Source: Lysobacterales bacterium (GTDB lineage Bacteria; Pseudomonadota; Gammaproteobacteria; Xanthomonadales; SZUA-5). From it: a DNA stretch of 64,000 bases. Every line of letters starts with the position of its first letter. The stretch's first letter is position 1. The stretch is from contig JALHMG010000001.1 of NCBI GenBank assembly GCA_022844135.1, positions 31,021-95,020 of the forward strand. Reading direction: 5' to 3'. The position numbers were made by a program, and so were the translations under genes. Of this stretch, positions 18,801 to 34,638 are shown one piece after another. The notes beneath the pieces are model-generated. The model was not told the origin of the DNA. It saw only the letters and a program-made list of their open reading frames with translations, and did no database searches.

Positions 18801-19124
18801 GGCAAGGGTCACAGGCCCAGGCACAGGCAAGAGAATAACGCGCCATTGCCTCCGCACGCGGCAGACTGAACCGACGAGCATTGCCTGCCTCGTTCGACGG
18901 CGTATTTGCTGCAAACCTGCGGTAGACCTTGACTCAAGTGGGGCTTCTAAAGAAAAGCCGCCTCGCAGACCCTTTCATTCAGGCGACCGGATCCCGCTTC
19001 ATCAAGAACGCCAGTACCGCTGAGGTTGCAGACACTGTCGATTGCGTTGCAACTGCGCGGCGTCGCGACCCAGTTCCGCGCGCCGCGCGTGACAATGGCT
19101 TAGCTGAGGCAACAGGGGCGTTGA

Positions 19125-19322
19125 ATGGCCATCGTGCAGAACATCGCGGAGCGGCTGGAACAGGTGATGGAGGTGGTGCGCGAGCAGCACCTGGATGTAG
19201 AAACGGCGGCGCGGGAGTTTGGTTTCCCCTCGCTCGATGCGTTCTTTACGGCGTTCGACAAGCACTATGGCGTGCGCGTCGAAACCGTTTCGCTGAGCAG
19301 CGCCGATGGTGCGCAGCCATAG
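19125..19322 (+). CDS. 65-aa protein resembling a single AraC C-terminal HTH (copy 1)
   Basis: AGGGG RBS; DVETAAREFGFPSLDAFFTAFDKHYG matches the AraC second-HTH pattern. Confidence 0.6.
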   Translation: MAIVQNIAERLEQVMEVVREQHLDVETAAREFGFPSLDAFFTAFDKHYGVRVETVSLSSADGAQP

Positions 19323-19553
19323 CGTTTGCGGAAGACCTGAGAGAAGTAGGACAGGTTGTCGAACCCGCTGGCGTAAGCGACCTCAGACACGCTGCCGCGG
19401 CGCTCGCGGAGCAGCGCCTCGGCGCGCTGCAGGCGATGTTCGCGCAGGATTTCGCTGGGAGTTGCCTCAAGCGTTTGCTTGCAGCGGCGGAACAGGGTAG
19501 CGCGGTCCATGTGCAGCGCATGAGCCAGTTCGGCAACGCCGAAGGTTGGATCA
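19265..19553 (-). pseudogene. Duplicated 3' fragment (AraC domain only) of the hybrid sensor gene at 34350-38273
   Basis: Encodes the same C-terminus (…DPTFGVAELAHALHMDRATLFRR…TVSTRTP*) but is truncated at 19553, where the island begins. Confidence 0.9.
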
Positions 19554-19566
19554 TGAGGCAGTAGTT

Positions 19567-20142
19567 TTAGAGGTCATGATCAAGCTTTGCGCATATTGCA
19601 TGCAAAGCAATTAGGTGAGCCTCTTGGATAAAAGCCGTCCGATGTGATGATGCGACGAAGGTCACATCGCATAGACTGGGGAAGGACGTCTCATTATCGC
19701 CAGTAAACCCGAGGCGAGAAAGCCCGAGATCTCGCGCGGTTTCCAACGCACAGAGTACGTTGCGGGACTTCCCGGACGTCGAGAAGGCAAGCAGCAGGTC
19801 GCCAGGTCGAGCAAAGGTCGAGATCGAGCGAGCGAAGATTTGGTCAAAGCCAAAGTCATTCGACAATGCGGTCAATGCCACTCCGTCGGATCCAAGCGCA
19901 ATTGCTCGAAAGCCCGGCCGCGACGATTCAAATCGAACCGAAATTTCCGCCGCAAAATGCTGGGCCATGGCAAACGATCCGCCGTTTCCGCAGGTGAACA
20001 CCGTGCCTTGAGCTTGGATTGTCCTCTTAATAAGTGCACTCATTCGTACAAGGACGGGTGATGCGTTCAATAGGGTTCGACTTGATTCAACGCTTTGGCT
20101 TAGGTACTTATCAATAACTGAATCCACGACTATCTCCATCAT
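19567..20142 (-). CDS. gmhA: Phosphoheptose isomerase (SIS domain)
   Basis: CGNGGS..MAQHFAAE, SNDFGFDQIFAR, FSTSGKSRNV, IQEAH…H.IC. ATGA overlap with gmhB. Confidence 0.92.
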   Translation of the reverse strand: MMEIVVDSVIDKYLSQSVESSRTLLNASPVLVRMSALIKRTIQAQGTVFTCGNGGSFAMAQHFAAEISVRFESSRPGFRAIALGSDGVALTALSNDFGFDQIFARSISTFARPGDLLLAFSTSGKSRNVLCALETARDLGLSRLGFTGDNETSFPSLCDVTFVASSHRTAFIQEAHLIALHAICAKLDHDL

Positions 20143-20678
20143 ATTATCCCCGCTCTTGTCGAAAATATTGCTCGTCCGATAACATCGGATAAGTCGCTGC
20201 CTGGTGTGTACAAATACGAACCTATGCCTGCCGCAGTTCCCGCTGCGAGGTCGCAAGGCTTATCCCCCACGACAAAGCATTTCGAACGAACCACGAGGTC
20301 TGTCGGACAATGCCGTAAAATCATCCCAGGATTGGGTTTCCGGTCAGGGTGATTGGCAGATCGATATCGCAAGACCGAAGCATCAGGGTGGTAAGGACAG
20401 TACTCAAATCCGTGGATTACGGCTCCTTCGGAGAGCGCCAAACTGGCTAACGCCTGATGGAATGATTGAACTTCCAATTCTGAGCAGAAACCTCGTGCGA
20501 CAGCGGATTGATTACTTACCACAACGATACGCCATCCCTCTTGGTTGAGTCGCTGCAACGCTGCCAATGCTCCGGGCTGCCACTCAATGCGACTGGCGTC
20601 AAAACGGTACACCTGATCCACGATAAGTGTTCCGTCGCGGTCGAGAAACGCGACTGGCTGGGCGAACATGGGCGTCAT
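20139..20678 (-). CDS. gmhB: Heptose-1,7-bisphosphate phosphatase (HAD-IIIA)
   Basis: FLDRDGTL, VVSNQSAVARG, CPYHP, RKPNPGM, VGDKPCD..AG.AAG. Confidence 0.92.
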   Translation of the reverse strand: MTPMFAQPVAFLDRDGTLIVDQVYRFDASRIEWQPGALAALQRLNQEGWRIVVVSNQSAVARGFCSELEVQSFHQALASLALSEGAVIHGFEYCPYHPDASVLRYRSANHPDRKPNPGMILRHCPTDLVVRSKCFVVGDKPCDLAAGTAAGIGSYLYTPGSDLSDVIGRAIFSTRAGII

Positions 20679-20727
20679 TTGTTTTCGTAACTCTTCGAAC
20701 GCCAGTGGGCTTCTGTACCTATCATAC

Positions 20728-20952
20728 TGCTTTTCGCTGAGTTCCTTGGACCCGATGAATTGTGAGGAAACCATTGAGGAAGATGCCAAAGCGAAGCGAG
20801 TTGCCCGCGTCGAAGCGGGTCGAGGTGGCATTGGCGCTGTTGCGCAAGGAAGAGCCAGCGGCGCAGATAGCATGCTGGCACGGAATCAGCGAGCAGACGT
20901 CGTATCGCTGGAAGGACGAGTTAGTTGCTGGCGGCAATGCACGTATGGCCTG
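20728..20952 (+). mobile_element. Truncated, diverged IS3-family left end with partial orfA
   Basis: IRL TGCTTTTCGCTGAGTTCCTTGGACCCG (4 mismatches in 27 vs the neighbouring IS). orfA from 20783 (MPKRSELPASKRVEVALALLRKEEP…) breaks off after ~55 codons. Confidence 0.85.
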
Positions 20953-21012
20953 TGTCTTGCGCTGAGTCCCTTGGACCCGATGGAGTGTTAGTAAACCATC
21001 GAGGACAGGAAG

Positions 21013-21315
21013 ATGCCAAAGCAAAGCGAGTTGCCCGCGTCGAAGCGGGTCGAGGCGGTATTGGCGCTGTTGCGCAAGGAGGAGCCGGCGGTGCAGATTG
21101 CACGGCGCTACGAGATCAGCGAGCAAACGTTGTACCGGTGGAAGGACGAATTCATTGCCGGCGGTAGTGCGCGCATTGAGGGCAAGGATGGCGATTCGTC
21201 GCAGGCTAAAGAGGTAGGCCGCTTGCAGCGCGAGATCGAGACGCGCGAGCAGGTGATCGGTGAGCTGACGATCGCGAACCGCATCCCAAAAAAGCTCTCG
21301 GGCCCGTCCGTCTGA
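21013..21315 (+). CDS. IS3 transposase OrfA (HTH)
   Basis: VQIARRYEISEQTLYRWKDEF HTH, leucine-zipper-like tail, in-frame A AAA AAG heptamer. Confidence 0.9.
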   Translation: MPKQSELPASKRVEAVLALLRKEEPAVQIARRYEISEQTLYRWKDEFIAGGSARIEGKDGDSSQAKEVGRLQREIETREQVIGELTIANRIPKKLSGPSV

Positions 21316-22336
21316 CGCCGGAAGTGCGGGCCATGCTGGTTGAGGAGCAAAAGCAGGCGGCCAAGAAGGAGTCGGCAACGGCGCCACGCTGGAAAGCGGT
21401 GCTGCGAGCCGTGGGTATTCGATTGCCAATGCAATCGGACTTGCGCCGTCGAGCCGGTACCACAAGCCGCCGGAGACGACCAAGCGGCCTCGGCCAGCGC
21501 CCAAGCCCTTGGATGAGGCGCAGCGAGCGAAGGTGATCGAGTTCGCCGAGCGCTATCCGTGGTGGGGCTACAAACGCGTCGCCATCGTCATGCGGCGCGC
21601 TGGGATCGAGGTGAGCAAGAAGTTCGTGCGCGCGGTGTACAAGGCCGAGGGCTTGATGCAGAAGCGGCGGCCGAGCAAAGCGGAGCTGTATCAGAGCGCC
21701 AAGTTGTACGAGCTGCTGCCGACGCGCTGCAATGCGCTGTGGCAAGCGGACGTCACCTACATCCATATTCCCGGCCACGGCTGGTGGTACGCGGTGACGG
21801 TGATCGACTACTACAGCCGCTATCTGCTGGCCTGCCATCTGACCAGCAGCTTCTCGGCAGTCGAGGTCGGCGCCGGGATCGATTTGGCAATGAAGGAAGC
21901 CGAGCGCGTGCATGGGAAACTTGAGCGCATACCGTTCTTAGTGACCGACAATGGCAGCAGTTTTCTGGCGCGTCGATTCCAGGCGCAGATCAAAGACCGT
22001 TTCAAGCACGTCCGGACGCGCTACCGGACGCCCGAGCAGCTTGGGTTATTGGAGCGTTTTCATCAGACGCTCAAGCGCGAAGAGGTGTATTGGCAGCTCT
22101 ACGACAACCCGCAGGATGCACGAACCAAGCTAGATGCATTCCGCCAGCGATACAACGACATCCGGCCGCACTGGGCGCTGCAGCCGGCCATCGGGGGCGA
22201 CGTTGTGACGCCCGCCGACGTCTATGTTCGCAACGAAGCTATCGTGTTGCCGAAGTGGCAAGGATGGGCAAAGGCGGCAAAGAAAAAGCTTGACGATGCC
22301 ATGGCGCAGGATGCGCAGTTGAGGCAAGCCGCGTGA
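21288..22336 (+). pseudogene. IS3 transposase OrfB (DDE integrase core) with an extra frameshift near 21411-21437
   Basis: The -1 frame after the slippery site stops at 21536. The DDE part (WQADVTY…TVIDYYSR…TDNGSSF…LERFHQTLKRE) is in a third frame, entered at ~21437 (GLAPSSRYH). Confidence 0.8.
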
Positions 22337-22419
22337 ACCGGTGCGGTCTCACAAAAACCGGTTGGGCGGGTCCAAGGGAATTGGGAGGCAAGACATCAGG
22401 TCGGTTCCAAGCGCGGTGG

Positions 22420-22545
22420 TCACCGACACGGGCAGCGCGTTGATCGAGACTTTGTTCGGCAGAGCTGTGGCGAGAGGAGTGTCGTTGGCAAATCGCTCAG
22501 GACGACGTTTGAAAGCGACATCCAGAGCCGCCGCGCATGTTGACG
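22420..22545 (-). pseudogene. C-terminal remnant of another IS3-type transposase
   Basis: AAALDVAFKRRPERFANDTPLATALPNKVSIN resembles the recalled 'LDAAYAAHPERF…P.LP..VWIN' tail of some IS3-family transposases. Confidence 0.6.
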
Positions 22546-22695
22546 GCGATGGCAATATCAAACGCAGACTGCCAATGAACGCCTGCCTAAGGTCGGCGCC
22601 GGGAGGGTCACGGGAGCGAAGTAAGCGATGACTCTGTATAAGACGGGTTGCCCTGATTAACGTCAGTTACAATGGCTGCTTAAGGGAACCTTCAG

Positions 22696-23631
22696 TTGGA
22701 GCGAGCGAGGATTTGCGTGACATCTTTTCGGAGCAAGCCTTTTTTCGTTGTAGGTGATGTCATGTTGGACAGATTCGTTCATGGACAGGTGACGCGCCTG
22801 TCGCCCGAGGCGCCCGTCCCCGTCCTTACGGTCTCGGGGCACGAGGATGTTCCAGGTGGAAGTGCAAACGTTGCCGTCAACTGCCGCGCGCTGGGACGAG
22901 AAGTGAGGCTCTTCGGATTGGTAGGACAGGATGCAGAGGCCACAATTCTCACTGATGCCCTAGAGTCCAAAGGTATAAGAACGCGGCTCTTTCCAACCGC
23001 AGCACCGACCATCTTAAAAACCCGACTGATTGATGGAAGAAGGCACTTGTTTCGCTTTGATCTTGAGCAGCGCTTTGTTCCTGGCGATGCTGCTGCGCTT
23101 GCTCGGGCTGTCTTCGCTGAATTAAATGAGGCAGGCGCCGTGCTCCTGTCGGACTATGCCAAAGGAACCTTGGCTGAGCCGCAAGCATATATTCGCGCTG
23201 CCCGAAGCGCGGGATTGCGAATATGCGTTGATCCCAAACATGTGCCGTTTGATAGGTATTTCGGGGCACACGTTTTGACCCCCAATGCCATTGAGTTCGA
23301 AGCCGCGACAGGCACAATAGTGGGTGGTTCCGGCTTTAATGATATCGCAGCCGCTCTATGCGCATCGCTCTCTCTTGAGGCACTGCTTGTTAAAGCGGGC
23401 AATCGAGGTATGTACCTGATTCAACCATACAAGCCGGTTCGACACATCGAGGCGCGCCCGGTCGTCGCAGTCGACGTGACCGGTGCGGGTGATGTAGTCC
23501 TCGCGGTCCTGTCGGATGGCTTGGCACGCGGACTGAGCTACGAAGACGCCGCTGTGCGCGCAAATTCAGCAGGTGCCATATCGGTAACGCGCAGAGGAAC
23601 TGGGGTGGTGGCAAATCATGAACTTGACTAG
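22696..23631 (+). CDS. hldE: D-glycero-manno-heptose-7-phosphate kinase (HldE/RfaE domain I, PfkB fold)
   Basis: VGDVMLDRF..G…RLSPEAPVPV, PGGSANVA, TILKTR, SDYAKG, DPK, TPN..EF, DVTGAGD. TTG start uncertain. Confidence 0.92.
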   Translation: MERARICVTSFRSKPFFVVGDVMLDRFVHGQVTRLSPEAPVPVLTVSGHEDVPGGSANVAVNCRALGREVRLFGLVGQDAEATILTDALESKGIRTRLFPTAAPTILKTRLIDGRRHLFRFDLEQRFVPGDAAALARAVFAELNEAGAVLLSDYAKGTLAEPQAYIRAARSAGLRICVDPKHVPFDRYFGAHVLTPNAIEFEAATGTIVGGSGFNDIAAALCASLSLEALLVKAGNRGMYLIQPYKPVRHIEARPVVAVDVTGAGDVVLAVLSDGLARGLSYEDAAVRANSAGAISVTRRGTGVVANHELD

Positions 23632-24148
23632 CGCCGAAATCTTGCGAAACAAAGCTTTTAACGAGATTGAGATTGCCAGAAAAGCTGGAAAGCGGGTCGT
23701 CTTCACCAACGGTTGCTTCGATCTTTTGCACCCCGGTCATGTGAGAAACCTACAAGAAGCACGCTCGCTAGGCGACTGCTTGGTCGTCGGCTTAAATACT
23801 GACGAGTCCGTTGCTCGATTAAAGGGCAGTAATCGCCCTATTCTGCCCCTCAACGCCCGAATTGAGATCCTCTCCGCGCTTTCCTGCGTGAACTGGGTAA
23901 TACCTTTTGGCGATCAAGCTGACGACACGCCCAAGAAATTGATCAGCGAAATAATGCCACATGTTCTCGCGAAAGGTGGGGATTATGAGATGACAGAGAT
24001 TGTGGGCGCCGACACCGTGACTGCAGGCGGCGGTGAAGTAGTTCGTCTAACGTACCATCACGATTGGTCCACGACCAGCTTAATTCGCGCGATCAAATCC
24101 GGGAGCGCTATTCGGCGCGTTCTTCACCCAGCGGATTACGAGAGCTAA
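23618..24148 (+). CDS. hldE: Heptose-1-phosphate adenylyltransferase (HldE/RfaE domain II)
   Basis: VFTNGCFDLLHPGHV, VVGLNTDESVARLKG..RP, KGGDY, STT. Confidence 0.92.
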   Translation: MNLTSAEILRNKAFNEIEIARKAGKRVVFTNGCFDLLHPGHVRNLQEARSLGDCLVVGLNTDESVARLKGSNRPILPLNARIEILSALSCVNWVIPFGDQADDTPKKLISEIMPHVLAKGGDYEMTEIVGADTVTAGGGEVVRLTYHHDWSTTSLIRAIKSGSAIRRVLHPADYES

Positions 24149-25139
24149 TAATGCGATTCAGAGGGTAATACAATTTTCGTGTCGGATATCCTTCCTTATC
24201 CACACACTTGGCACAAAGCGGAATACCACTTAGCGAATGGCTCGCGTGCGCACCCCTGAATCGGCGCAAATTCTCGCTATTCCAAATTTCACGCAAAGAC
24301 TGGTTATTTACGTTTCCGAGTACTTGTTTGCCGTCATAATCGAAGCAACAGGGTACGACACGCCCATCCCACAGCACAGTTAAGGATGTCCACGGTTTGT
24401 CGCAAACAAAATCAGGCGGCTGAATCTCATGAACCCGCAGCGATTTTATCCGTTCGTTTGTATTATCCCACGCTACATAACGCTTGACCTTCACTCTGTC
24501 AATGCCTGGCCAATTCTTCCACTTACGCAACCAATCATTCACTTCGTGGCGGTTCTCTCCCTGCTCAACGATTTGTAGGATGACTCGAGGCCGGGATCTA
24601 CCCGCCTCGGCCTTGTAATCCAGGAGCTTCCTCAACCTTGATTCGGCTAATTCGAGATTGCCGGCGGCACGCCCGCGCACTCGCTCATTGGTCGCCGCCG
24701 TCACGCCATCGAGAGAAAGAACTAGCTCTTCGAGTCCGCTATCTACCAAAGAAGCAATCCGATGATCAGTAAGGAGTATCGGATTAGCGGATAGAAATCC
24801 CTTGACCCCAGACTGGGAAGCATAATTCAGGATTCTTGCGATATCCGGATGAAGCAAGCTGTCTCCGAAATGATGAAGCAGGACGGATCGAGTCGAATAT
24901 CGAGCTTCGTCGATGATCTTCTTGAAGACATCGAATTCCATGAATCCCAATGGTCGCGTCATCTGATTGGTGCGGGGGCACATCTCGCAAGTCATTGGGC
25001 AGTGATTTGTCAACTCGATCTGGAAGACTACTGGGTAACCTCCAGGCTCGATGCGCTGCCAGTTGTAATAGAACTGAAGAACCTCCGCGTTCACCCATTT
25101 GGCGAACGTGTCAAAGAATCGCGCATCCACTAGTCCCAC
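24108..25139 (-). CDS. Radical SAM enzyme with SPASM/twitch domain
   Basis: ELTNHCPMTCEMCPR (CxxxCxxC); CDKPW…WDGRVVPCCFD…LGN…W…CAKC. Confidence 0.92.
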   Translation of the reverse strand: MGLVDARFFDTFAKWVNAEVLQFYYNWQRIEPGGYPVVFQIELTNHCPMTCEMCPRTNQMTRPLGFMEFDVFKKIIDEARYSTRSVLLHHFGDSLLHPDIARILNYASQSGVKGFLSANPILLTDHRIASLVDSGLEELVLSLDGVTAATNERVRGRAAGNLELAESRLRKLLDYKAEAGRSRPRVILQIVEQGENRHEVNDWLRKWKNWPGIDRVKVKRYVAWDNTNERIKSLRVHEIQPPDFVCDKPWTSLTVLWDGRVVPCCFDYDGKQVLGNVNNQSLREIWNSENLRRFRGAHASHSLSGIPLCAKCVDKEGYPTRKLYYPLNRIISSRNPLGEERAE

Positions 25140-25993
25140 TCCCCCTCTGCGTTCCTCAGCAGATTACCACCGACGCCAGCAATAGAGCACGAAACCAGCG
25201 TAAGGCGCTTAGCCTCGTACATCGCTACGGTTGCTGCGACACCAGCATTTAGAGATTCAAGTCCCAGGTGGCCTCCCGGAATACTTACTAGTTCGCTGCA
25301 GTGCTTTCGTGTCCTTTGTCGCAAACCTTCCCCCTCGGCTCCAATGACAAATGCCAGCTTCTCATGGGATACAAGATCCGGAAGTATTCTGCTGCCTCTC
25401 TCATCCAGCCCGACCACATGGTATCCGATGTCCCGAAGTGTCTCGATGGCTAATACAAGATTAGCAACGCAGTAAAATTCAATTAACTCGGCGCCGCCGA
25501 CGGCGTACCTGACTACTTCTGCAGTAGGTGTCGCCGCTCGATGTCGCATATATATTATCGCATCAAATCCGAAAAAGGCCGCTGATCGAATTATTGTTGC
25601 CAAATTCTGAGGGTTCGAAACCTGATCCAGCAACAGGACTGATTTTGCGTTAACAAGATCTTGCAAGTCCCTCTCAACGCCTATAATCCGCGGATTGGCA
25701 AAGCAGAAGATGCCTTGGTGGTTGTCTTCGCCAACGAGTTGTCCAGCCCTCCTGAACTCTGGCCATGAAAGAAAAGCCACAGGTATATTGTGCCGCTGAG
25801 CAAGGGAAATCGCTTCTTGATGGTAGTCGGGCTTGCCCGCGAGCACGAGCTTTAGGACGTCGCCAGGACGCATCATCAGAGCGGCACGAACCGAATGCTT
25901 ACCATAAATTTTTTCTTTTCCACTACGTTCCGAATCGGTATCGGCCCCAGGCACGGAGTTCGCGTCGGTTCGCGGCTGAAACTGCTTGCGCAT
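25130..25993 (-). CDS. TrmH/SpoU-family RNA 2'-O-methyltransferase, RlmB-like
   Basis: IYGKHSV, LDQVSNPQNLATIIRSA, IGAEGEGLRQRTRKHCSELVSIP, ESLNAGVA. Confidence 0.88.
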   Translation of the reverse strand: MRKQFQPRTDANSVPGADTDSERSGKEKIYGKHSVRAALMMRPGDVLKLVLAGKPDYHQEAISLAQRHNIPVAFLSWPEFRRAGQLVGEDNHQGIFCFANPRIIGVERDLQDLVNAKSVLLLDQVSNPQNLATIIRSAAFFGFDAIIYMRHRAATPTAEVVRYAVGGAELIEFYCVANLVLAIETLRDIGYHVVGLDERGSRILPDLVSHEKLAFVIGAEGEGLRQRTRKHCSELVSIPGGHLGLESLNAGVAATVAMYEAKRLTLVSCSIAGVGGNLLRNAEGEWD

Positions 25994-26191
25994 GACTGTA
26001 TGCTTCTCAAAGTTTGCACTACGATGCCGAAAAGGACGAGCCGCCAAAGCGGTGAGAATTTCTCTTCTAACGTTCGTCGGGTGAACTGCTTAGCCTACTG
26101 CAACATCCGCATCGCCGCAAGGGCTGGATGCGAGTTGAGCAGACTAGGCCAAGAGAAATCCCTCCGATAATGTATCTCGACGTTTTCAACA

Positions 26192-27565
26192 TTGCAAGAG
26201 GACTCAATTGAAGTTATCGTTCTGGAACATTGTGCCAGCCCCAGGGTTGTGACGGTTATGGATAGGAAGGAATGTCAAGCATTGTGGGAGCGCTGCCAGA
26301 CGGAAAAATCAAAGATGTTTGCCGAGAATGGCAGCGAGAAGTTCTCACAGATCAGGGCAGCCAAGGTCTGGAATTATTGGGCTCTTTCAATGGTGAGCGA
26401 GCGCAAATCCCTTGAGCGTCAGGGGCGGTTTTTCGGGCGCATGCGCTGGCTTTGGGAAAGCCAAGCTCGTGTCGACTTCAGTGATTCGGTTTTCAGGCGG
26501 GCTTTGCGTGACCGAGCTCGAAGTGACCGTCCGCATTCCGAACGGAAATTTTCGCTGGCATCGTCGGGGGAGGCCATTGATTTCCGTTGGTTCGTTTTCC
26601 CTGGTTTAGTTGATTTTTCAAGATGCGCTTTCGATTCCTGGGTTTGGTTTGGAGCGACCAGATTCTGCGGACGCACCGAATTCCGCGATTGCAATTTCGC
26701 GGATTGGGTAGGATTTCTTAGTAGTCAAGCACAAGAATCACCTTGCGAGTTCCATGATATTTGCCGGTTCGATGGCTGCACCTTTTCTGATGATACCTAC
26801 TTCAGAAGTGCTGTTTTTCACGGTTTAGTATATTTCAGCGGCTGCGACTTCGCGGGAAAGGCGGATATGTCCCTCGCTCAATTCAACAAAGGCGCGAGTT
26901 TTTTCGGAGCGCGGTTTAATCAGGGAGTTATCTTAAATGGCGTCGCTTTTCGGCGAGTTCCGGACTTCTCCTTTGCGACTTTTAGTGTCGCACCATCAAT
27001 TCCGAAGAAGGTTGTGATGGAAGGTCTTGGAAAGCCGATCAATTACGTGAGAGAGAAGGAGGGCATGCAGCCCGTTCTAGAGGAATGTTACCGTGCGCTT
27101 AGAAGGATTGCCTCGGACAGCCGTGATTGGGGGGCGGAGCGCGATTACCTTGTGCTGGAACAGGAGTCCCGGGCTGATGCGTCGTTGACTTTTCGGGTTT
27201 TGCTTCGCTGCTTCGCACTAGGTTGCGATTACGGACGAAGTGCGGTTCGTCCATTGTGTTTTTGGTTCATAAATGCATTAGTGTTCTCGGGAGTATACGA
27301 GGCTATGCGGTATTCGATTGGGTCATTCACCTGGCGTGGTTTTTTCCGTGAGAGTTTTTACATCGCCGTTTGCCGGAACTTTCCGGTTCTCGGGCAAGCA
27401 AATTCACGCGCTTATGATACGGCAGTAACCGGTCTCCTGGGGAGCTCGGATGTTCGAATGGCATGGTTTGATTTCCTTGTAGTTCTGCAGAGCACGCTCG
27501 CTGCGATATTTTTGTTCTTGGTTGCTATGTGTATTCGAAACGCACTGCGCTATGACAGCGAATAG
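26192..27565 (+). CDS. Pentapeptide-repeat protein with C-terminal membrane helices (start uncertain; ATG at 26258 possible)
   Basis: Repeated F-x4-F pattern (VDFSRCAF…FGATRF…FRDCNF…FDGCTF…FRSAVF…FSGCDF…); DYGRSAVRP followed by hydrophobic segments. Confidence 0.75.
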   Translation: MQEDSIEVIVLEHCASPRVVTVMDRKECQALWERCQTEKSKMFAENGSEKFSQIRAAKVWNYWALSMVSERKSLERQGRFFGRMRWLWESQARVDFSDSVFRRALRDRARSDRPHSERKFSLASSGEAIDFRWFVFPGLVDFSRCAFDSWVWFGATRFCGRTEFRDCNFADWVGFLSSQAQESPCEFHDICRFDGCTFSDDTYFRSAVFHGLVYFSGCDFAGKADMSLAQFNKGASFFGARFNQGVILNGVAFRRVPDFSFATFSVAPSIPKKVVMEGLGKPINYVREKEGMQPVLEECYRALRRIASDSRDWGAERDYLVLEQESRADASLTFRVLLRCFALGCDYGRSAVRPLCFWFINALVFSGVYEAMRYSIGSFTWRGFFRESFYIAVCRNFPVLGQANSRAYDTAVTGLLGSSDVRMAWFDFLVVLQSTLAAIFLFLVAMCIRNALRYDSE

Positions 27566-27592
27566 CACGATCTCGGCGAAGAACAGCTGATA

Positions 27593-28525
27593 CTAAAGGG
27601 ATTCGAGAAAGCGCAGGAGATTCGGCATGTGTTCGCCCCAGGCAATGACACTGGGATCATGCCGCACGCACGGTTTGGCACTAGCTTCGGCCAGTGCGCC
27701 AATGAAGGCAATTGTGTCCTCTGGCGTCGTGACCACATTCGGTAGGCCGAGAATGTGGCTGTGTTGGAGTTTGTTTACAACAACCATTTGAGTGCCTGAG
27801 GCATATTGATCAGATACCACTCCGCTGGCATAGGGCGACGATGGTGCGGCGGTCCAACACCAAAGCAGATCGCATGCTCGAAGGCGGTCAAAACGGTCTC
27901 GATTGCTCCATTGCGAGTACGCAAGATGAAGTCGACTGGGATATAAGGCTGCTATCGAGGCTAATTCTTCGAGCACGCCCGGGGAGGGTTGCTTCCATGG
28001 GCTCAAGACTAGGTAGATTGCGACGGCGGGGATCTGATGGAGGATTGCCTCACTGATTCTCGGGTATTCGCGTTCATATCTGAGAAACCCGTTCGTTCCA
28101 ATTAGAAATCTGTCCAAGGGTAATCCAAACTGGGTGCGTAATCTCCTTCGCGTCGTGTTTTCCGAAAAAGTCTCTGACGGATGAGGGAACCAATGACCGC
28201 GCTTTGCGCCTTCAATGAGCGAGGGTACCATAGCCACTATCGCAGCAACGGAGTCGTAAAGCGCCCTCGCATCATCGGAGTGTGGCATTAGTACAACGGG
28301 TTGCCGACAATCCATAATAAAATCATGTGCACTGTTTATTGGTAATACTTCCCCATGGTAATGAAGAAAAACGATATCGGCGCGGTCGGCGCGGAGTTCT
28401 GCACTACATTTCACTTTCGCACCAGCGCGGCGAAGTGCTGTCGCCATTCGTTTAGAGAAATAACCGATGCCACAACGATCATTTAGAGTGGTAGCGATCT
28501 GGAGTATGTGTAGGGGACGACGCAT
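27593..28525 (-). CDS. Glycosyltransferase-like protein (GT-B/GT4-like)
   Basis: N-terminal HILQI…CGIGYF…A.ALR and central IGTNGFLRYER. Last gene of the six-gene operon. Confidence 0.6.
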   Translation of the reverse strand: MRRPLHILQIATTLNDRCGIGYFSKRMATALRRAGAKVKCSAELRADRADIVFLHYHGEVLPINSAHDFIMDCRQPVVLMPHSDDARALYDSVAAIVAMVPSLIEGAKRGHWFPHPSETFSENTTRRRLRTQFGLPLDRFLIGTNGFLRYEREYPRISEAILHQIPAVAIYLVLSPWKQPSPGVLEELASIAALYPSRLHLAYSQWSNRDRFDRLRACDLLWCWTAAPSSPYASGVVSDQYASGTQMVVVNKLQHSHILGLPNVVTTPEDTIAFIGALAEASAKPCVRHDPSVIAWGEHMPNLLRFLESL

Positions 28526-28540
28526 GGGAATGGTGAATAG

Positions 28541-29353
28541 TTACGTTTCGTTGAAGGGATTGCATGGTCTGCCTTTTGCGTCGCGGACTGTCAGTTCGTG
28601 AGCAATCGGCGTAACACTAACTTCACGACGCCTCCAAAAAACGTCCAGGTCCGATCCACTGGCGATCTGGTCGGAAGTGTAGTTGGAGGCGAATGTGTAA
28701 CGATCGGAACTTGTTTTCGCGCTGCTGTTTTTCAACTGGAGACGATAAGGGTCCAGTCGACTTTGTTCGCACAAGCGCCATTCTGTACGCATTTCAACGC
28801 AGCTTGGAATGTTGATGTTGAGGCATGACACGTTTGGATTTAATCCCCTTAAGGCCAACCGCGCCAATTGGGAGGTCACTGTCATCGCGGGCTTCCAAAC
28901 CTCAGGATCAAAGGTCTTGCCGAAGTGCGAGTCATCTTCTTCCATGCTTACTGCCATACTAGGCACTCCGTGGCTGCCTGCCTGGGCGGCCGCTGCTATA
29001 GTTCCGCTTAAGTGTACGGTGTACCCAAGGTTCTCGCCGGCGTTTATCCCACTTATACATAGATCTGGTGGCTTCGAAACAAGTTCCAGAAGTGCAATGC
29101 TAATAACTTGCGATGGGGCTCCGGCGATGGTGTAACCTTTAACCATCCCTTCTGATAGATGAAAATTGTGGGGCGAAACATTGCCGATGTCGGGTCCGCG
29201 AAGGAAGGCGCGTGACATGCATGTCTGATTAACACGTGGGCAAACAACCAACACCTCGCCAAGTGTTTGAGCTACTTCAATCGCGGCGCGAAGGCCAAAC
29301 GAATCTGGACCGTCGTCGTTGGTTACGAGGATGTAGGGTGGTCTAGTTGACAT
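28541..29353 (-). CDS. surE: SurE-family 5'/3'-nucleotidase
   Basis: ILVTNDDG, SGINAGENLG…SGTIAAA, NINIP, VSVTPI. Confidence 0.9.
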   Translation of the reverse strand: MSTRPPYILVTNDDGPDSFGLRAAIEVAQTLGEVLVVCPRVNQTCMSRAFLRGPDIGNVSPHNFHLSEGMVKGYTIAGAPSQVISIALLELVSKPPDLCISGINAGENLGYTVHLSGTIAAAAQAGSHGVPSMAVSMEEDDSHFGKTFDPEVWKPAMTVTSQLARLALRGLNPNVSCLNINIPSCVEMRTEWRLCEQSRLDPYRLQLKNSSAKTSSDRYTFASNYTSDQIASGSDLDVFWRRREVSVTPIAHELTVRDAKGRPCNPFNET

Positions 29354-30353
29354 GATTCGCGTTCTGGTTTTGGGATGTGGCTTTAGCGAATGCGTTAACG
29401 ACGTCCTTGGTCGTGATCGCTTCTAAGCCTGGATCGATGGTCTCGCCGTATGGGTTGTGTTCTTGTCCTTTCCAGATCGTGATGTGTTCGGTGCAGGTTT
29501 TAGGTGGCCCCCAACAACCGGGCGAGACAGGACCGAACAGTGTCACCGCGCTCGTTCGGGTTGCCGTTGCTAAGTGCGCGACACCACTGTCAACAGACAG
29601 AACGAGTCCAGCGGCGGCGACGCGATGAAGCAAGTCGCAAGCCGTCGTATTGAGTGAAACGCTGGTAACGTCGACTCCCGCTTGGTTGGCAATCGTGAGA
29701 GCACGATCTCGCTCCCGCAGCGTGCCTGTTAGCTGCAACTTCCATCCCATGGCCTGGACTTTTCTTGCCACCTCCGTCCAACGATCTTGCGGCCAAAGGC
29801 GAGCCGGGCTTCCGGCGCCAGCGTGCAGAATTACGGGTGCATTTCTGTCCAGAGGACGCGGAGTACGCAGAAAGAGGTCGTTGGCGTCGAGATCGATACC
29901 CAAAAGGCCAAGCAGGCGAGCCCATCGGGAGAAAATGTGATCGGCAAAATCAAGGAACGGAGCACTTGATGTTTCGGGTATCGCGGGGTGACGGTAGCTC
30001 AATATTTGACTCGGTCGGAGTGCTCGGAGCAAGGGCAACAGCTCATGACCGGGAGTCCTTAGGGAAACGATTAGCTCAACCCTTTCTTTCAGCTCCAATA
30101 CGGAAGCCAGTACATTTGAATCAGCGGCTCGGTGATCTGTGGGACCAATTGTGTCTGGATTCGAGCGATCGGAGAGGATTAAGTCGCACAGATTCAAATA
30201 TCCAGCAAGATCCTTGAGCCACGACGGGCACGTCATTATTATCTTCTGGGTTGGGTAGGTTCGACGCAAAGCGCGCATTGCGGGAATCCCCGTCATCAGG
30301 TCGCCGAGCCCATTGTGTCGTAAAACCAAGATAGCGCCCTTTCGGCCCATCAT
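29343..30353 (-). CDS. Glycosyltransferase family 9 (heptosyltransferase-like)
   Basis: LVLRHNGLGDLMTGIPAMRALRR, LHAGAG…RLWP..RW, VDSGVAHLA.A…TLFGP. Confidence 0.88.
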   Translation of the reverse strand: MMGRKGAILVLRHNGLGDLMTGIPAMRALRRTYPTQKIIMTCPSWLKDLAGYLNLCDLILSDRSNPDTIGPTDHRAADSNVLASVLELKERVELIVSLRTPGHELLPLLRALRPSQILSYRHPAIPETSSAPFLDFADHIFSRWARLLGLLGIDLDANDLFLRTPRPLDRNAPVILHAGAGSPARLWPQDRWTEVARKVQAMGWKLQLTGTLRERDRALTIANQAGVDVTSVSLNTTACDLLHRVAAAGLVLSVDSGVAHLATATRTSAVTLFGPVSPGCWGPPKTCTEHITIWKGQEHNPYGETIDPGLEAITTKDVVNAFAKATSQNQNANHVN

Positions 30354-30354
30354 G

Positions 30355-31473
30355 CTAGTCACTCAGCCTCGATTTGTAGGGCGCCAAACATGCTTGGCGA
30401 ATGATTTGTGCAACCTGATGGGCTCCTCGGCCAGAGTTATGACTGACAGTCCTGCGCACGTGTCCAGCCATTTGTAACGGGGATAGTCCAGAGCGTAAAG
30501 ACTCCGTTATTTCGGCCCGCTTGGCAGGATCCTTGCGAGCCTCCGCCAAAGCGCTGTAGATTGCATTCACTACCTTTTCCTCACCTGCAGGTCGTAACGC
30601 TTCTATCATTCCGGTCGACAGCACGCTATCCGGCCAATTGAGTGCGGAGCACTCGGGATCCACAAACAGGCGCGTATTTAGGATCTGACTCAGATTTTGT
30701 GGCGGCAACAAGATGGACGGCAAGCCTATTTGCATTGCTTGGAAGATAGTCGTGCTGCCCGGTGAGGTGAGTAGAAGGTCACAAGTCCTTAGCAACTGCT
30801 CAAAGACATGACCGCTCTGCACACCGACGACAACGTCATTTCCGAAGCGCTGCCGTATATTGCTTAACCAGTCGGACCCGATGTTGCCGCATACGCCAGC
30901 GATGGAAACCGAAGCCGCCTCAAGCGCGCCAAGCACGCCAGGCAAGACAAGATCGACATAGTCCAGAGTTCCACAAAGGTGGCTATGCACACCTCCCACG
31001 TTCACTACAACTCCGGCGCCGCCTGTGCGACGCCTCGGCTGCGGAACGATAGGCTCCACCCAACAAAAGTCGCGTCTATTTCGAAGGCACGAGGCTAGTG
31101 GCAAAATCTCGTCCGGGTATCGCTGTGCGCAATAACATACCGTGGCGTTAGGCAACGGGACCTCATTTCCATTAGCCCACAGGTACGGCAAACTATCAAC
31201 ATAAACAACAGGTATTCCAAGCGATCCGAGGTAATTCGCTCGTTCTGGGTCGTTAATCACGAGCGCCGCGTTCGCGTCAGCAAGGGGCGCATCAACAAAC
31301 TCGTGATTGAAGTCGTCGAGCGCTAGTATTTGTGTCGACATCGGCGGCGGTTCATGAAGTATGATCCGGTGCGGTGGGAGGTGCTTGAGAATTAAGCGAA
31401 GTTTGCCCAGACTGCCCCAGCCGAAGTGACAAGCAGAAACTACCAGCATCGCGCTGTTGCGTGTTGAACCCAT
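30355..31473 (-). CDS. blsD: Cytosylglucuronate (CGA) synthase-like glycosyltransferase (BlsD/MilC-like)
   Basis: N-terminal FGWGSLGKL motif as recalled for CGA synthases; YVDSLPYLW, VVNVGG, SPGSTT, LPPQNLSQ. Operonic with the BlsE-like gene and an aminotransferase. Confidence 0.65.
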   Translation of the reverse strand: MGSTRNSAMLVVSACHFGWGSLGKLRLILKHLPPHRIILHEPPPMSTQILALDDFNHEFVDAPLADANAALVINDPERANYLGSLGIPVVYVDSLPYLWANGNEVPLPNATVCYCAQRYPDEILPLASCLRNRRDFCWVEPIVPQPRRRTGGAGVVVNVGGVHSHLCGTLDYVDLVLPGVLGALEAASVSIAGVCGNIGSDWLSNIRQRFGNDVVVGVQSGHVFEQLLRTCDLLLTSPGSTTIFQAMQIGLPSILLPPQNLSQILNTRLFVDPECSALNWPDSVLSTGMIEALRPAGEEKVVNAIYSALAEARKDPAKRAEITESLRSGLSPLQMAGHVRRTVSHNSGRGAHQVAQIIRQACLAPYKSRLSD

Positions 31474-31477
31474 GGAA

Positions 31478-32722
31478 TTAATCTCGTGTCCCGGCGAAGT
31501 GTCGCCACACCTTCAGTGTTCCTTCGCAGCTCATCTCGGCCTCTTGCATCGGAAGCCAGGGCCCTGTTTCCAATTCAAAAAGCCGTGAGTGGGCGTCGCG
31601 CGCCACAGGACAATCATCTGCGGTCATCGCTGCCGAATTTTTGCGGAGATAACTGGTTAGCCAGTCTATTCGAAACAAAGGCCGATGCGGGATGCGGCAG
31701 CTTATATTTTCGGCGGAAATCGCCTTTACCAAATCGTCGCGTATTGATCGCGCGCCATCAGGGACAAGAACAGGGCATTTAAAGTAGACACTCTCGCCCC
31801 ATTCCGGTTCTTTGATCGTCAGAAGCCCATGACTCAAGAAAGATCGACCATAATACCGGCCGGCGTTCTGGCGATCCGAGATCTCTTCCGTCAGTCTGGA
31901 TAATCCATCCAGACCGATTATTGCTGGGAATTCTGCCATTCGGCAACTGAAACCTAATCTCTCATAGTCGTCCCAGTCGGGGCCTTTGCCGTAGTTAGAC
32001 AAAGTCCGTAATGTGTTGTAACGTGAATGGTCGGCGCAGATAACCATTCCGCCCTCACCACAAGAAATATGCTTTCGTACTGAAAATGCGAAAGCGGCGT
32101 AGTCGCCAAACGTGCCTACCCTGCGTCGTCGTACTGTGGCGCCAAACGCTTGCGCACAGTCTTCGATCAAAGTGAGGCCTTCGGTTGAGCACAACGTTGA
32201 AATACTGTCCATATCTGCAGGATAGCCCCAGAAATGAACCACCAAGACGGCTTTGGTGCGCGGACTAATTAGTTCGCGCGCCCGAGTCGCCGACATGGTT
32301 AACGATTGAGGTTCAACATCGCAGATCACGGGTATGGCGTTGTTTTGCACGATAGCGGAAGCTGCCGCTACGAAGCAAAACGCAGGTACAATCACCTCGT
32401 CCCCCGGGCCGATACCTGCCGCTGAGAGCGCTAAGCTCAGCGCTGACGTCCCAGAATTCACGGAGACCCCGCGGATGTCCGCTCCGAAAAATGCAGCGAA
32501 TTCGGTTTCGAATCTACGTGCCCATGGCCCTGAGTAATACAAGGACAGGAGACCAGAATCCATCATTTCAAGAACCCGGGCCCGAGCAGTCGTGGATATG
32601 CGGACTCCTGTGGGCAAAGGCAGCTGGCGAGTTGGCGTACCACCGAATATTGCCAGCGGATTCTGGTTTGTTTTGCGCATACCATTAGGCATTGGTGATT
32701 TCCGAAATTTCAATATTCCCAT
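31478..32722 (-). CDS. DegT/DnrJ/EryC1/StrS PLP aminotransferase (BlsH-like by context)
   Basis: NSGTSAL, PAFCF.A, VHFWG, IEDCAQAFG, FSVRKHISCGEGG (PLP lysine). Confidence 0.92.
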   Translation of the reverse strand: MGILKFRKSPMPNGMRKTNQNPLAIFGGTPTRQLPLPTGVRISTTARARVLEMMDSGLLSLYYSGPWARRFETEFAAFFGADIRGVSVNSGTSALSLALSAAGIGPGDEVIVPAFCFVAAASAIVQNNAIPVICDVEPQSLTMSATRARELISPRTKAVLVVHFWGYPADMDSISTLCSTEGLTLIEDCAQAFGATVRRRRVGTFGDYAAFAFSVRKHISCGEGGMVICADHSRYNTLRTLSNYGKGPDWDDYERLGFSCRMAEFPAIIGLDGLSRLTEEISDRQNAGRYYGRSFLSHGLLTIKEPEWGESVYFKCPVLVPDGARSIRDDLVKAISAENISCRIPHRPLFRIDWLTSYLRKNSAAMTADDCPVARDAHSRLFELETGPWLPMQEAEMSCEGTLKVWRHFAGTRD

Positions 32723-33684
32723 GGGTCAACATTTCCCACATCATCAATCCGATTGCTGTAGGCGGCCGCTGTCGTGGAACAGCCTTTGCAGGTTCGATGT
32801 CCGTCGGTACGGTAATAGCGAACATGCTCATTCCATTCTGAATTGGTCAGCGACCACGTGTCATCGTTCTGGACGACAGCGCCGTCGGTTGCGTCTTCAC
32901 CAGTTCGATGCGGAAGCAAACTGCAGCCAAAAGCCTTTTTGATTTTTGGGTCTATATATATAACATTCCCGACGACATTACAGAGGCTGCCGGTGGGTTT
33001 CGGACATACTCCAGCGTCGAAGAACAAATCCTGGGCTGAGCGGCTCTCGCCGTAAAAGCGCAGACCCATTGGAACCAAGAGGCCTGGCTCAGTGTGATAA
33101 AGGCGGTCGCACGAATCAATCACAGCTTGCCGATCAGGATAGACGATTGGGCGGTCAAGCTTTAACGCGGTTAGCTCCCATTGATTGATTCCCACATCGG
33201 TGAAGAGTTTTTGTAATTCGAGCATATCTTGATAGTTGTGAGGTCCAACCACAGTATTTACTCGCGTGCGGATGCCTAGTTCTTTAGCCTTGCTGATCCC
33301 GTCGATACAACGGTCGAATAGGCCCGGAAATCCTCTTATTTTGTCGTGATTATCCCGTGTGCCGTCAATGCTGACAACGATCTGATCCAGGCCGCTGGCG
33401 GATAGTTCTGAAATTTTGGTTGGTAAGGAAGCTCCGTTTGTAATTATGGAGCTCTTCAATTCGAATTGCTTTATAATCCTCACGAATTCTGAGATTTCCA
33501 GGTGCAAAAGTGGCTCTCCACCTGTCAGACGAACGTACTCGACCCCAACTCCTTTGGCCTTGTCTAGTATCGCGAACAAATCACTCTTACTAAATCTATA
33601 TTGATCCTTGGAGCGAGCAAAGACGCACATGAAGCAATCTGCGTTACATGCCTCCAGGATTCGTATGAACAAGTACTTTTTCAT
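32710..33684 (-). CDS. blsE: Radical SAM cytosylglucuronate dehydratase/decarboxylase (BlsE/MilG-like)
   Basis: YLFIRILEACNADCFMC.FA.S.D.YRF and YVRLTGGEPL.H match recalled BlsE N-termini closely; C-terminal Cys for an auxiliary cluster. Confidence 0.78.
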   Translation of the reverse strand: MKKYLFIRILEACNADCFMCVFARSKDQYRFSKSDLFAILDKAKGVGVEYVRLTGGEPLLHLEISEFVRIIKQFELKSSIITNGASLPTKISELSASGLDQIVVSIDGTRDNHDKIRGFPGLFDRCIDGISKAKELGIRTRVNTVVGPHNYQDMLELQKLFTDVGINQWELTALKLDRPIVYPDRQAVIDSCDRLYHTEPGLLVPMGLRFYGESRSAQDLFFDAGVCPKPTGSLCNVVGNVIYIDPKIKKAFGCSLLPHRTGEDATDGAVVQNDDTWSLTNSEWNEHVRYYRTDGHRTCKGCSTTAAAYSNRIDDVGNVDPWEY

Positions 33685-34200
33685 TATTTCCCGACTTCTG
33701 AGCATTGGTGTAGTTGGCAAATTGCTAATCGACTTGCTCAGATGATCTGAAAGGCTGAGCGATGTTTCTTCGTTTCCATGGTCTGATCGAGTTCTGGCGA
33801 GAGCTTGCGTTGCGATTCGCGCTTACGCTTAGATGAGCACTTGAGCTGCACCGAATGCTCGCTCAATCGGAAGCGTTTTCGCTATCTGGGAATTCTCGCA
33901 AATTCTGACTTTGGCTTTCTGCTTAGCTGACCGGCGCCGTCCTGGGGTTGAGACCTCAATGGAGGCCACTTTCTACGCTGGGCATCGGTCAGTTGCACTT
34001 GGCTAGGTGCGGGGGATGTCTGGTACGAGTCGTGTCTGGCGCGCATCGATGTGCCGAGCTTCTTGTTCTACCTGCGATCCACTGATGCGACGCAGTGCTG
34101 TTATCGTCGTTGGGAACGTCTTCGACCGCGTTGCAAAAACTGAAGATTGGCAACCAACGCCGTATTGCGCGCGCGACAATTCGTCAGTGGTGGTTCGGAA

Positions 34201-34638
34201 GGGCGTTGAATGGCCATCGTGCAGAACATTGCGGAGCGGCTGGAACAGGTGATGGAGGTGGTGCGCGAGCAGCACCTGGATGTAGAAACGGCGGCGCGGG
34301 AGTTTGGTTTCCCCTCGCTCGATGCGTTCTTTACGGCGTTCGACAAGCACTATGGCGTGCGCGTCGAAACCGTTTCGCTGAGCAGCGCCGATGGTGCGCA
34401 GCCATAGCGTTTGCGGAAGACCTGAGAGAAGTAGGACAGGTTGTCGAACCCGCTGGCGTAAGCGACCTCAGACACGCTGCCGCGGCGCTCGCGGAGCAGC
34501 GCCTCGGCGCGCTGCAGGCGATGTTCGCGCAGGATTTCGCTGGGAGTTGCTTCAAGCGTTTGCTTGCAGCGGCGGAACAGGGTAGCGCGGTCCATGTGCA
34601 GCGCATGAGCCAGTTCGGCAACGCCGAAGGTTGGATCA
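34201..34638. repeat. 438-bp direct repeat, copy 2 (right boundary of island)
   Basis: Matches 19116-19553 with 2 mismatches; lies within the intact hybrid sensor gene's 3' end. Confidence 0.97.
34210..34407 (+). CDS. 65-aa mini AraC-type HTH protein (copy 2)
   Basis: Protein identical to 19125-19322; overlaps the sensor gene's 3' end convergently by 58 nt. Confidence 0.6.
   Translation: MAIVQNIAERLEQVMEVVREQHLDVETAAREFGFPSLDAFFTAFDKHYGVRVETVSLSSADGAQP

Follow-up and report, generated by a model that had tools for sequence, protein, structure and literature searches.

The stretch of DNA considered here, hereafter the window, comprises 64,000 nucleotides (nts) from a soil-type gammaproteobacterium of the order Lysobacterales (contig JALHMG010000001.1, positions 31,021 to 95,020, of assembly GCA_022844135.1, which is 99.83% complete). 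Positions 19567-24148 of the window hold four intact genes of heptose biosynthesis, laid out as the original prediction had described them: a gmhB-gmhA pair on the minus strand, divergent from an hldA-hldC pair on the plus strand. These cassette genes are the sole heptose genes of the genome, and they sit within a horizontally acquired 15-kb island of low G+C content (GC) that also bears a nucleoside-antibiotic core operon and a glycosyltransferase of family GT9 (Table 1). ADP-heptose genes in Gram-negative genomes are usually taken as a marker of the lipopolysaccharide (LPS) core. Here, they stand outside the envelope programme of the lineage and are tied to a secondary-metabolite cluster instead, and the cassette is probably a portable precursor supply of that horizontally acquired cluster, providing heptose for the product of the island and not for LPS.

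The heptose cassette and the island around it

GmhA is identified as the isomerase by its SIS_2 domain (8.1e-21), by TIGR00441 as its best family (152.8 bits, under the cut-off of 209), by phosphoheptose isomerases as its best matches in the PDB (1tk9, 5lu7, and 2xbl, at about 1e-35), and by the retention of the metal and catalytic motifs HFAAE and IQEAH..H. Its open reading frame (ORF) opens with a TTG at 20256; homologue alignment places the probable start at an ATG at 20142, overlapping the gmhB stop, and the alignment with its homologue on a related metagenomic contig, L098 (60% identity), runs from residue 48. The probable start of gmhB, at 20678, follows from the same kind of alignment, the 5′ part of the ORF being derived from an insertion sequence (IS). 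GmhB is recognized as the phosphatase by NF006506 (95.1 bits) and TIGR00213 (85.8 bits), both under their cut-offs, and by E. coli GmhB as its best PDB match (3l8e, 1.3e-23); the DRDGT, SNQS, RKPNPGM, and GDKxxD motifs are invariant across the GmhB homologues of four such cassettes. On the opposite strand, HldA joins a PfkB domain (6.3e-32) to kinase-type matches with domain I of HldE (TIGR02198, 282.3 bits against a cut-off of 345) and with the bifunctional HldE model NF008454 (290 bits), and GAGD and NxxE motifs are readable in its translation. Its homologues are first of the cassette type, at 55-61% identity, and then ordinary bifunctional HldE proteins, at 42-47%. HldC, the transferase, scores above the cut-off of TIGR02199, the model of HldE domain II (182.5 against 181.5 bits), finds its best PDB match in Burkholderia HldC (5x9q, 1.2e-33), and bears HPGH and WSTT motifs. 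As judged from these families, the pairing of a PfkB kinase with a cytidylyltransferase-like transferase would place the pathway on the β-anomer ADP route, not on the GHMP/HddC GDP route.

The island is bounded by a direct repeat of 438 nts, of which 300 are perfect, at a spacing of 15085 nts. The repeat length was fixed by a query of the joined flanks, whose positions 1-1954 and 1517-3316 matched the host genome. Excepting a host-like IS, the GC of the island is 47-58%, compared to ~63% in the host, and that of the heptose genes is 51-56%. None of the thirteen ORFs on the island is truncated, and their motifs are intact. The nucleoside core operon (30355..33720, minus strand) encodes homologues of cytosylglucuronic acid (CGA) synthase, DegT, and BlsE, and the four genes at 25130..29353, encoding a methyltransferase, a pentapeptide-repeat protein, a 310-residue protein, and SurE, are all conserved in related clusters. 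The right repeat starts ~480 nts past BlsE; a gene that once stood first in the island may therefore be gone. Farther on, ~6 kb past the island, a Wzm/Wzt O-antigen cluster occupies 40725-63452, beyond the repeats; its GC matches that of the host, and none of its genes encodes a GT9. The cluster holds two asparagine-synthase-like amidotransferases, two FkbM methyltransferases, a STELLO-like transferase, and a DUF4143 ATPase insertion.

Table 1. Coordinates of the cassette, the island, and associated features (window positions, except for the chromosomal GT9)
Feature	Position	Strand	Remarks
gmhA, sedoheptulose-7-phosphate isomerase	19567..20142 (probable gene); ORF 19567-20256	-	SIS_2, TIGR00441
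gmhB, heptose 1,7-bisphosphate 7-phosphatase	20139..20678 (probable gene); ORF 20139-20873	-	HAD-IIIA
hldA, D-glycero-β-D-manno-heptose-7-phosphate kinase	22696..23631	+	PfkB type, monodomain; PfkB, TIGR02198
hldC, heptose-1-phosphate nucleotidyltransferase	23618..24148	+	adenylyltransferase type; TIGR02199, PDB 5x9q
Left-end remnant of related IS3-family element	20732..20946	.	215 nts; direct repeats, blastn
Full IS3-family insertion sequence	20952..22395	+	orfA ~21013-21315, orfB 21509-22336; rve, rve_3, HTH_21 domains
Radical SAM/SPASM enzyme	24108..25139	-	convergent with hldC; Radical_SAM and SPASM domains
RlmB-like 23S rRNA 2′-O-methyltransferase	25130-26047	-	
Pentapeptide-repeat protein	26192-27565	+	
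Uncharacterised protein	27593-28525	-	310 residues
SurE nucleotidase	28541-29353	-	
GT9 glycosyltransferase, probable heptosyltransferase	29343..30362	-	PF01075, 70.2 bits; only GT9 in the window
CGA synthase homologue	30355-31473	-	TIGR04467, 207.8 bits (cut-off 300)
DegT aminotransferase	31478-32722	-	PF01041, 281.8 bits
BlsE-type radical SAM decarboxylase	32710-33720	-	TIGR04466, 386.6 bits (cut-off 400)
Direct repeat, left copy	19116..19553	+	438 nts; duplicates 3′ end of hybrid kinase/AraC gene
Direct repeat, right copy	34201..34638	+	438 nts; inside intact hybrid histidine kinase/AraC gene (34350-38273, minus)
Chromosomal GT9	C13:6420-7448 (L011:6420-7448)		adjoins recJ

The two gene pairs are separated by ~2 kb filled with a full IS3-family element and the end remnant of another. 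The corresponding gaps in the cassettes of three other loci, L098, L193, and L194, measure only 47, 105, and 126 nts, and the IS therefore landed in a formerly compact bidirectional promoter region. The element has a host-like GC of 62-64%, and is a multicopy IS of the host, since copies of its ends, 94-95% identical, terminate contigs C15, C48, C69, C67, C14, and C3; it inserted after the island was acquired. The same multicopy element breaks the assembly at several contig ends. The direct repeats of the remnant (D2/D3) are 85-86% identical to 20957-21176 of the full element (84% by blastn). As to the origin of the 300 nts 5′ of hldA, their sequence proved unique and not IS-related. A promoter and terminator scan of 19.4-24.3 kb returned fewer sites than in shuffled sequences.

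Heptose genes and GT9 proteins in the genome and its relatives

Searches of the genome with the window proteins (tblastn) returned no second copy of gmhA, hldA, or hldC. The window has no hldD, waaA, or lipid A genes, and its single GT9 lies in the nucleoside operon, just as originally claimed. The genome-wide search for hldD, waaC, and waaF that had been proposed as a check likewise found none over cut-off: the best score against TIGR02197 was 85.7 bits compared to a required 274.6, from generic SDR enzymes, and the related cassettes of L098, L193, and L194 also have no 6-epimerase. The GT9 family has two members only in the genome, one on the island and one adjoining recJ on another contig, with no third GT9 and no autotransporter heptosyltransferase. 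Neither scores as an inner-core enzyme: with the WaaC model (cut-off 185), the island protein reaches 57 bits and its chromosomal counterpart 101, and both are also far under the curated scores for WaaF and WaaQ.

The search was extended to 60 relatives, of which one shares the genus of the host, 25 its family, and 34 its order. HldA occurs in none of them (best score 98 bits, compared to about 283 for the host), nor does HldC over its cut-off (77 compared to about 183), such that the window HldC is the only TIGR02199 match over cut-off among the 61 genomes. The cassette, absent from all 60 relatives and carried on a repeat-bounded, low-GC island, does not show the pattern of vertical inheritance. 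The chromosomal GT9 is kept in 54 of these 60 heptose-pathway-free genomes (80% identity in the same genus), and its orthologues appear in ~500 public Lysobacterales records, none with a heptose pathway; its best match, at 79%, is in a metagenome-assembled genome (MAG) of a Lysobacterales bacterium, followed at 53-59% by Rhodanobacteraceae, Arenimonas, Chiayiivirga, Dokdonella, and Lysobacter. The chromosomal GT9 thus works without a heptose pathway, because it is conserved in 54 relatives that have neither HldA nor HldC. Its donor is presumably not a heptose, and the protein is possibly a mannosyltransferase acting on 3-deoxy-D-manno-octulosonic acid (Kdo) in a heptose-free core, which would make it an atypical GT9.

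The original prediction also leaned on the heptose-free LPS core of Xanthomonas. That part stands for X. campestris, whose published core consists of Kdo, mannose, and glucose (Kdo-Man-Glc) with galacturonyl phosphates and is without heptose (PMC8042644), but the present host belongs to Lysobacterales and is not a Xanthomonas. The heptose-free-core argument therefore rests on the order-wide genomics together with the X. campestris structure.

These distributions bear on the proposal that the cassette serves the host surface, delivering ADP-heptose into the LPS core through the chromosomal GT9, or else into an O-antigen, a capsule, or a glycoprotein. The host has a second GT9 and no other heptose genes, the O-antigen cluster is ~6 kb away, and promiscuous use of a donor new to the cell is conceivable. 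However, the 54 relatives that share the chromosomal GT9 do so without HldA or HldC, both GT9 proteins fall well short of WaaC and WaaF, no third GT9 or autotransporter heptosyltransferase was found in the genome, the O-antigen cluster stands apart from the island in GC, in its position outside the repeats, and in having no GT9, and the cassette accompanies nucleoside genes in another lineage. A surface role is thus very improbable. The finding named beforehand as fatal to the nucleoside assignment, that these are the only heptose genes and that a heptose-bearing host core depends on them, holds in its first half, as they are indeed the only ones, while dependence of the LPS core on them is strongly disfavored by their distribution in relatives.

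Linkage to a nucleoside cluster and the predicted chemistry

The closest homologue of the island GT9, at 59% identity, occurs on metagenomic contigs from three samples, L098-L100. The protein has only a handful of close homologues, of which the nearest named are actinobacterial GT9 proteins at 35-39% identity, and a search of the genome collection returned no relatives. The order of genes on these contigs is BlsM-like, BlsE, DegT, CGA synthase, GT9, SurE, the homologue of the 310-residue protein, EF-P, rRNA methyltransferase, FkbM, SPASM, and hldC-hldA. On L098-L100, too, hldC-hldA is divergent from gmhB-gmhA, and the overall order mirrors that of the window. Between the window and L098, the cassette proteins are 57-64% identical and the core enzymes 55-69%; this equal divergence is consistent with inheritance of cassette and core as one unit. 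The HldA of these contigs shares 78% identity with a protein of Rhodophyticola; Ruegeria, too, has a named HldA homologue. The claim that heptose is made for the product of the island rather than for the LPS core is thereby upheld on four counts: membership in the island, linkage to nucleoside genes in a cluster ~60% identical, the absence of HldA and HldC from all 60 relatives, and the retention of the chromosomal GT9 in 54 of them.

The core also occurs without the cassette, at four loci (L102, L201/L202, L184, and L203, the last too short to judge). Of these, L184, the only one with a searchable genome, belongs to a Mycobacteriaceae MAG with a GC of 70%, in which a bifunctional HldE (200.8 bits, 515-residue frame) is encoded on another contig. 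This fits the idea of the cassette as a detachable supply module, needed only in hosts without ADP-heptose. L184 was the one useful actinobacterial cluster retrieved by a locus search of the genome collection with P0002; a search with P0118 found distant Bacteroidota only, and the alignment from one with HldA was dominated by ordinary HldE. A fourth divergent cassette, at L193:2986-5509, has a GC of 47% and is followed by genes for proteins of 279 and 413 residues without Pfam match. Its neighbors are unrelated to the nucleoside cluster, and the cassette may thus serve other products as well. Joining L194, which bears a cassette, to L101, which bears a cluster from the same sample, was attempted and rejected, as the two have no overlap and no shared gene.

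Several further elements recur in the related clusters. A BlsM-like Nuc_deoxyrib_tr gene precedes BlsE in L098, L101, L184, and L201, and a SPASM enzyme lies beside or near the GT9 in every version of the cluster seen, with or without cassette. Two SPASM copies are present in L102 (5452-6504 and 7413-8423), and the enzyme is a candidate epimerase, oxidase, or dehydratase acting on a heptosyl or pentopyranosyl unit. Beside the rRNA methyltransferase, there is a dedicated EF-P paralogue (L098:7306-7869, L101:8293-8856, L102:9413-9979, and L201:5339-5905), which shares just 32-33% identity with the pair of EF-P-family homologues in the host genome; a role in target protection or in resistance, against a nucleoside that binds the P site, is possible. 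As context, not proof, the RlmB-like methyltransferase, the pentapeptide-repeat protein, and this EF-P paralogue of the relatives suggest a blasticidin-like inhibitor of the peptidyl-transferase center.

The predicted pathway begins with sedoheptulose-7-phosphate, which GmhA would isomerize to D-glycero-D-manno-heptose-7-phosphate. HldA, as a PfkB kinase, would convert the latter to the β-1,7-bisphosphate, GmhB would take off the 7-phosphate, and HldC would join the resulting heptose-1-phosphate to a nucleotide, most likely from ATP, giving ADP-D-glycero-β-D-manno-heptose. Since neither the genome nor any cassette encodes a 6-epimerase, the product should stay in the D,D form. In parallel, the core operon would assemble a cytosine nucleoside from cytosine and UDP-glucuronate by CGA synthase, followed by decarboxylation by BlsE and transamination by DegT. 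The GT9, an inverting enzyme of GT-B fold, would then place an α-linked D,D-heptose on this nucleoside intermediate, and the SPASM radical SAM enzyme may further tailor the sugar. The host LPS would use none of the cassette heptose.

The identity of the activated sugar turns on HldC and on the donor site of the GT9. The original prediction allowed for CDP or another nucleoside diphosphate in place of ADP, and an alternative in which the sugar is not ADP-D,D-manno-heptose, but its CDP or UDP form or an isomer generated by a divergent GmhA or a SPASM step before transfer, has several observations in its favor. Three of the four enzymes score below their equivalog cut-offs, and a radical SAM enzyme adjoins hldC. 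Tang and colleagues linked the motif (F/L)xxGRSTT, termed STTR5, with an additional use of CTP and UTP by HldC enzymes, and some HldC-type enzymes make CDP- and UDP-heptose (PMC11573728). The closest structure, that of Burkholderia HldC, has the promiscuity-type sequence FEHDRSTT; enterobacterial HldE has FEDGCSTT. The window HldC, however, is without STTR5, reading YHHDWSTT, and a tryptophan takes the place of the arginine in all four cassette HldCs, the other three being YHLRWSTT, FHDTWSTS, and FHAGWSSS. The tryptophan was considered as a specificity hallmark of these enzymes and rejected. Among the 150 closest HldC representatives, with 141 in the denominator, an aromatic residue is commonest at position 5 (Y/H/F/W in 62 of the 141, with counts of Y 30, H 17, R 16, F 13, and W 2), and marks nothing special. 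The motif therefore offers no positive sign of CDP or UDP.

The GT9 points in the same direction. In the complex of WaaC with ADP-heptose, D13, K192, E222, D261, T262, G263, and H266 are the catalytic and donor-binding positions. In the island GT9, aligned to WaaC structures, D13, E222, D261, G263, and H266 are identical, while K192 is replaced by arginine and T262 by serine. With the donor-site positions of WaaC thus matched, among them E222 and the others that align with its ADP-heptose contacts, ADP-heptose is favored as the donor. To our knowledge, all characterised GT9 donors are ADP-heptoses. CDP or another nucleotide therefore finds no positive support, HldC being without STTR5 and the GT9 having kept the contact residues of WaaC, and an activated sugar other than ADP-D,D-manno-heptose is unlikely. 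The accompanying remark that ADP-heptose is an ALPK1 agonist is irrelevant to this organism.

A number of observations weigh against a working supply module for an island product. GmhA, GmhB, and HldA all fall under their NCBIfam equivalog cut-offs, and may conceivably have an altered substrate or stereochemistry; in hygromycin B biosynthesis, a homologue of GmhA reportedly gives an altro-heptose. The linkage of cassette to cluster is direct in only two independent lineages, the neighbors of two further cassettes, L193 and L194, show no link to the cluster, and the half of the argument by which the cassette is absent where the host supplies heptose rests on one genome, the L184 MAG. When the joined flanks of the island were compared with 12 relatives, which are only ~70% identical and not collinear there, no empty site was shown. 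The IS3 element and the remnant occupy the bidirectional promoter region between gmhB and hldA, and may uncouple or silence both operons of the cassette. Finally, no BlsM-type CMP hydrolase (Nuc_deoxyrib_tr) is encoded in the genome, nor is there a remnant of one at 33721-34200, and the EF-P paralogue and FkbM methyltransferase of the related clusters are missing from the island. With these losses, the island copy may yield another product, or no product at all.

The last of these points, together with the right edge of the island directly abutting BlsE and a gap between the gene pairs that is far longer than the 47-126 nts of the relatives, could mean that the module is a decaying relic in this genome, one that was built to supply the cluster but no longer leads to a heptosylated nucleoside here. 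The state of the genes argues otherwise: the thirteen ORFs have all remained full length with intact motifs, and the resistance-type methyltransferase and pentapeptide genes have been kept. Free cytosine may be supplied by other routes. IS3 elements can provide outward promoters, by which the IS-disrupted copy may be expressed. A relic in this host is thus unlikely, and the cassette as the heptose supply of the island remains the probable explanation.

Extending this explanation to the scattered relatives in Proteobacteria and Actinobacteria yields a broader and more tentative proposal, with somewhat less than an even chance of being correct: the clusters would form an undescribed family that makes ribosome-directed cytosine nucleosides bearing a D-glycero-D-manno-heptose installed by GT9, with the cassette as the detachable module by which a cluster functions in heptose-free hosts.

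Significance and comparison with known systems

Together, this analysis provides an example where a biosynthetic cluster can bring its own precursor pathway into hosts without one. For annotation, a simple rule follows: where a clade is heptose-free, heptose genes that come without hldD and without WaaC/WaaF indicate a natural product. For genome mining, the lead is a putative blasticidin-like nucleoside bearing heptose, and public data contain at least seven distinct versions of the cluster. For enzymology, the island offers a candidate small-molecule GT9 together with a D,D-heptose donor system; if the broader proposal is true, no earlier GT9 would have been shown to use a small-molecule nucleoside in place of LPS or protein. 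A literature search returned nothing relevant on heptose with cytosylglucuronic acid, on heptose-containing cytosine nucleosides, or on a hikizimycin cluster. A link to the C11 sugar hikosamine was considered and dropped, as neither the carbon count nor the glycosyltransferase chemistry fits.

Four known systems invite comparison. The LPS inner-core pathway to ADP-L-glycero-β-D-manno-heptose (GmhA, HldE or HldA and HldC, GmhB, and HldD, with WaaC/WaaF) shares with the cassette its four enzyme families, the sequence of their reactions, and the β-anomer ADP route, and the monodomain HldA and HldC have counterparts in Burkholderia. Unlike that pathway, the cassette includes no HldD and has no WaaC/WaaF-grade transferase to serve, and it resides on a foreign island, absent from all 60 relatives, with neighbors of nucleoside-antibiotic rather than core-oligosaccharide type. 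The GDP-D-glycero-α-D-manno-heptose pathway of capsules and S-layer glycans (GmhA, HddA, GmhB, and HddC) is alike in ending with a D,D-heptose nucleotide and in having no 6-epimerase. However, its kinase is of the GHMP type, its nucleotidyltransferase is an NTP_transferase, and its product is the α-anomer, whereas the cassette encodes PfkB and CTP_transf_like proteins.

The nucleoside half of the island recalls the CGA-nucleoside clusters of the blasticidin S, mildiomycin, and gougerotin type, with which it shares homologues of CGA synthase, BlsE, and the pyridoxal phosphate-dependent aminotransferase, and its relatives also the BlsM-like gene. In this island, BlsM is missing, and CGA synthase and BlsE score 207.8 and 386.6 bits against cut-offs of 300 and 400. 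No peptide-ligating genes are seen; in their stead are the GT9, the heptose cassette, SurE, the SPASM enzyme, and the rRNA methyltransferase.

A precedent for the arrangement is the septacidin (sep) cluster of Streptomyces, which makes its own ADP-heptose and transfers it to N6 of AMP (PMC9978623). In both, a secondary-metabolite cluster embeds its own genes from sedoheptulose-7-phosphate to ADP-heptose alongside a dedicated transferase, and the product is a heptose-bearing nucleoside, established in septacidin and predicted here. By analogy with the N6 of adenine, the exocyclic N4 of a cytosine nucleotide might be where the GT9 attaches its sugar, although such an acceptor site is quite unlikely. 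The two systems diverge in their sugars, acceptors, and hosts. In septacidin, the donor is the L,D epimer, ADP-L-glycero-β-D-manno-heptose, the acceptor is adenine, and the sugar is subsequently converted to an L-heptosamine via SepI/J/A/G (PMC9978623). The island has no epimerase, the SepI/J/A types (GMC oxidase, TIM-barrel epimerase, and VOC epimerase) are absent from its Pfam matches, the predicted scaffold is cytosine/CGA, and the hosts include Proteobacteria. An ADP-heptose supply embedded in a biosynthetic cluster is thus known from septacidin, while what is new here is the omission of the epimerase, the cytosine scaffold, the link to a GT9, and the mobility of the whole among heptose-free Proteobacteria.

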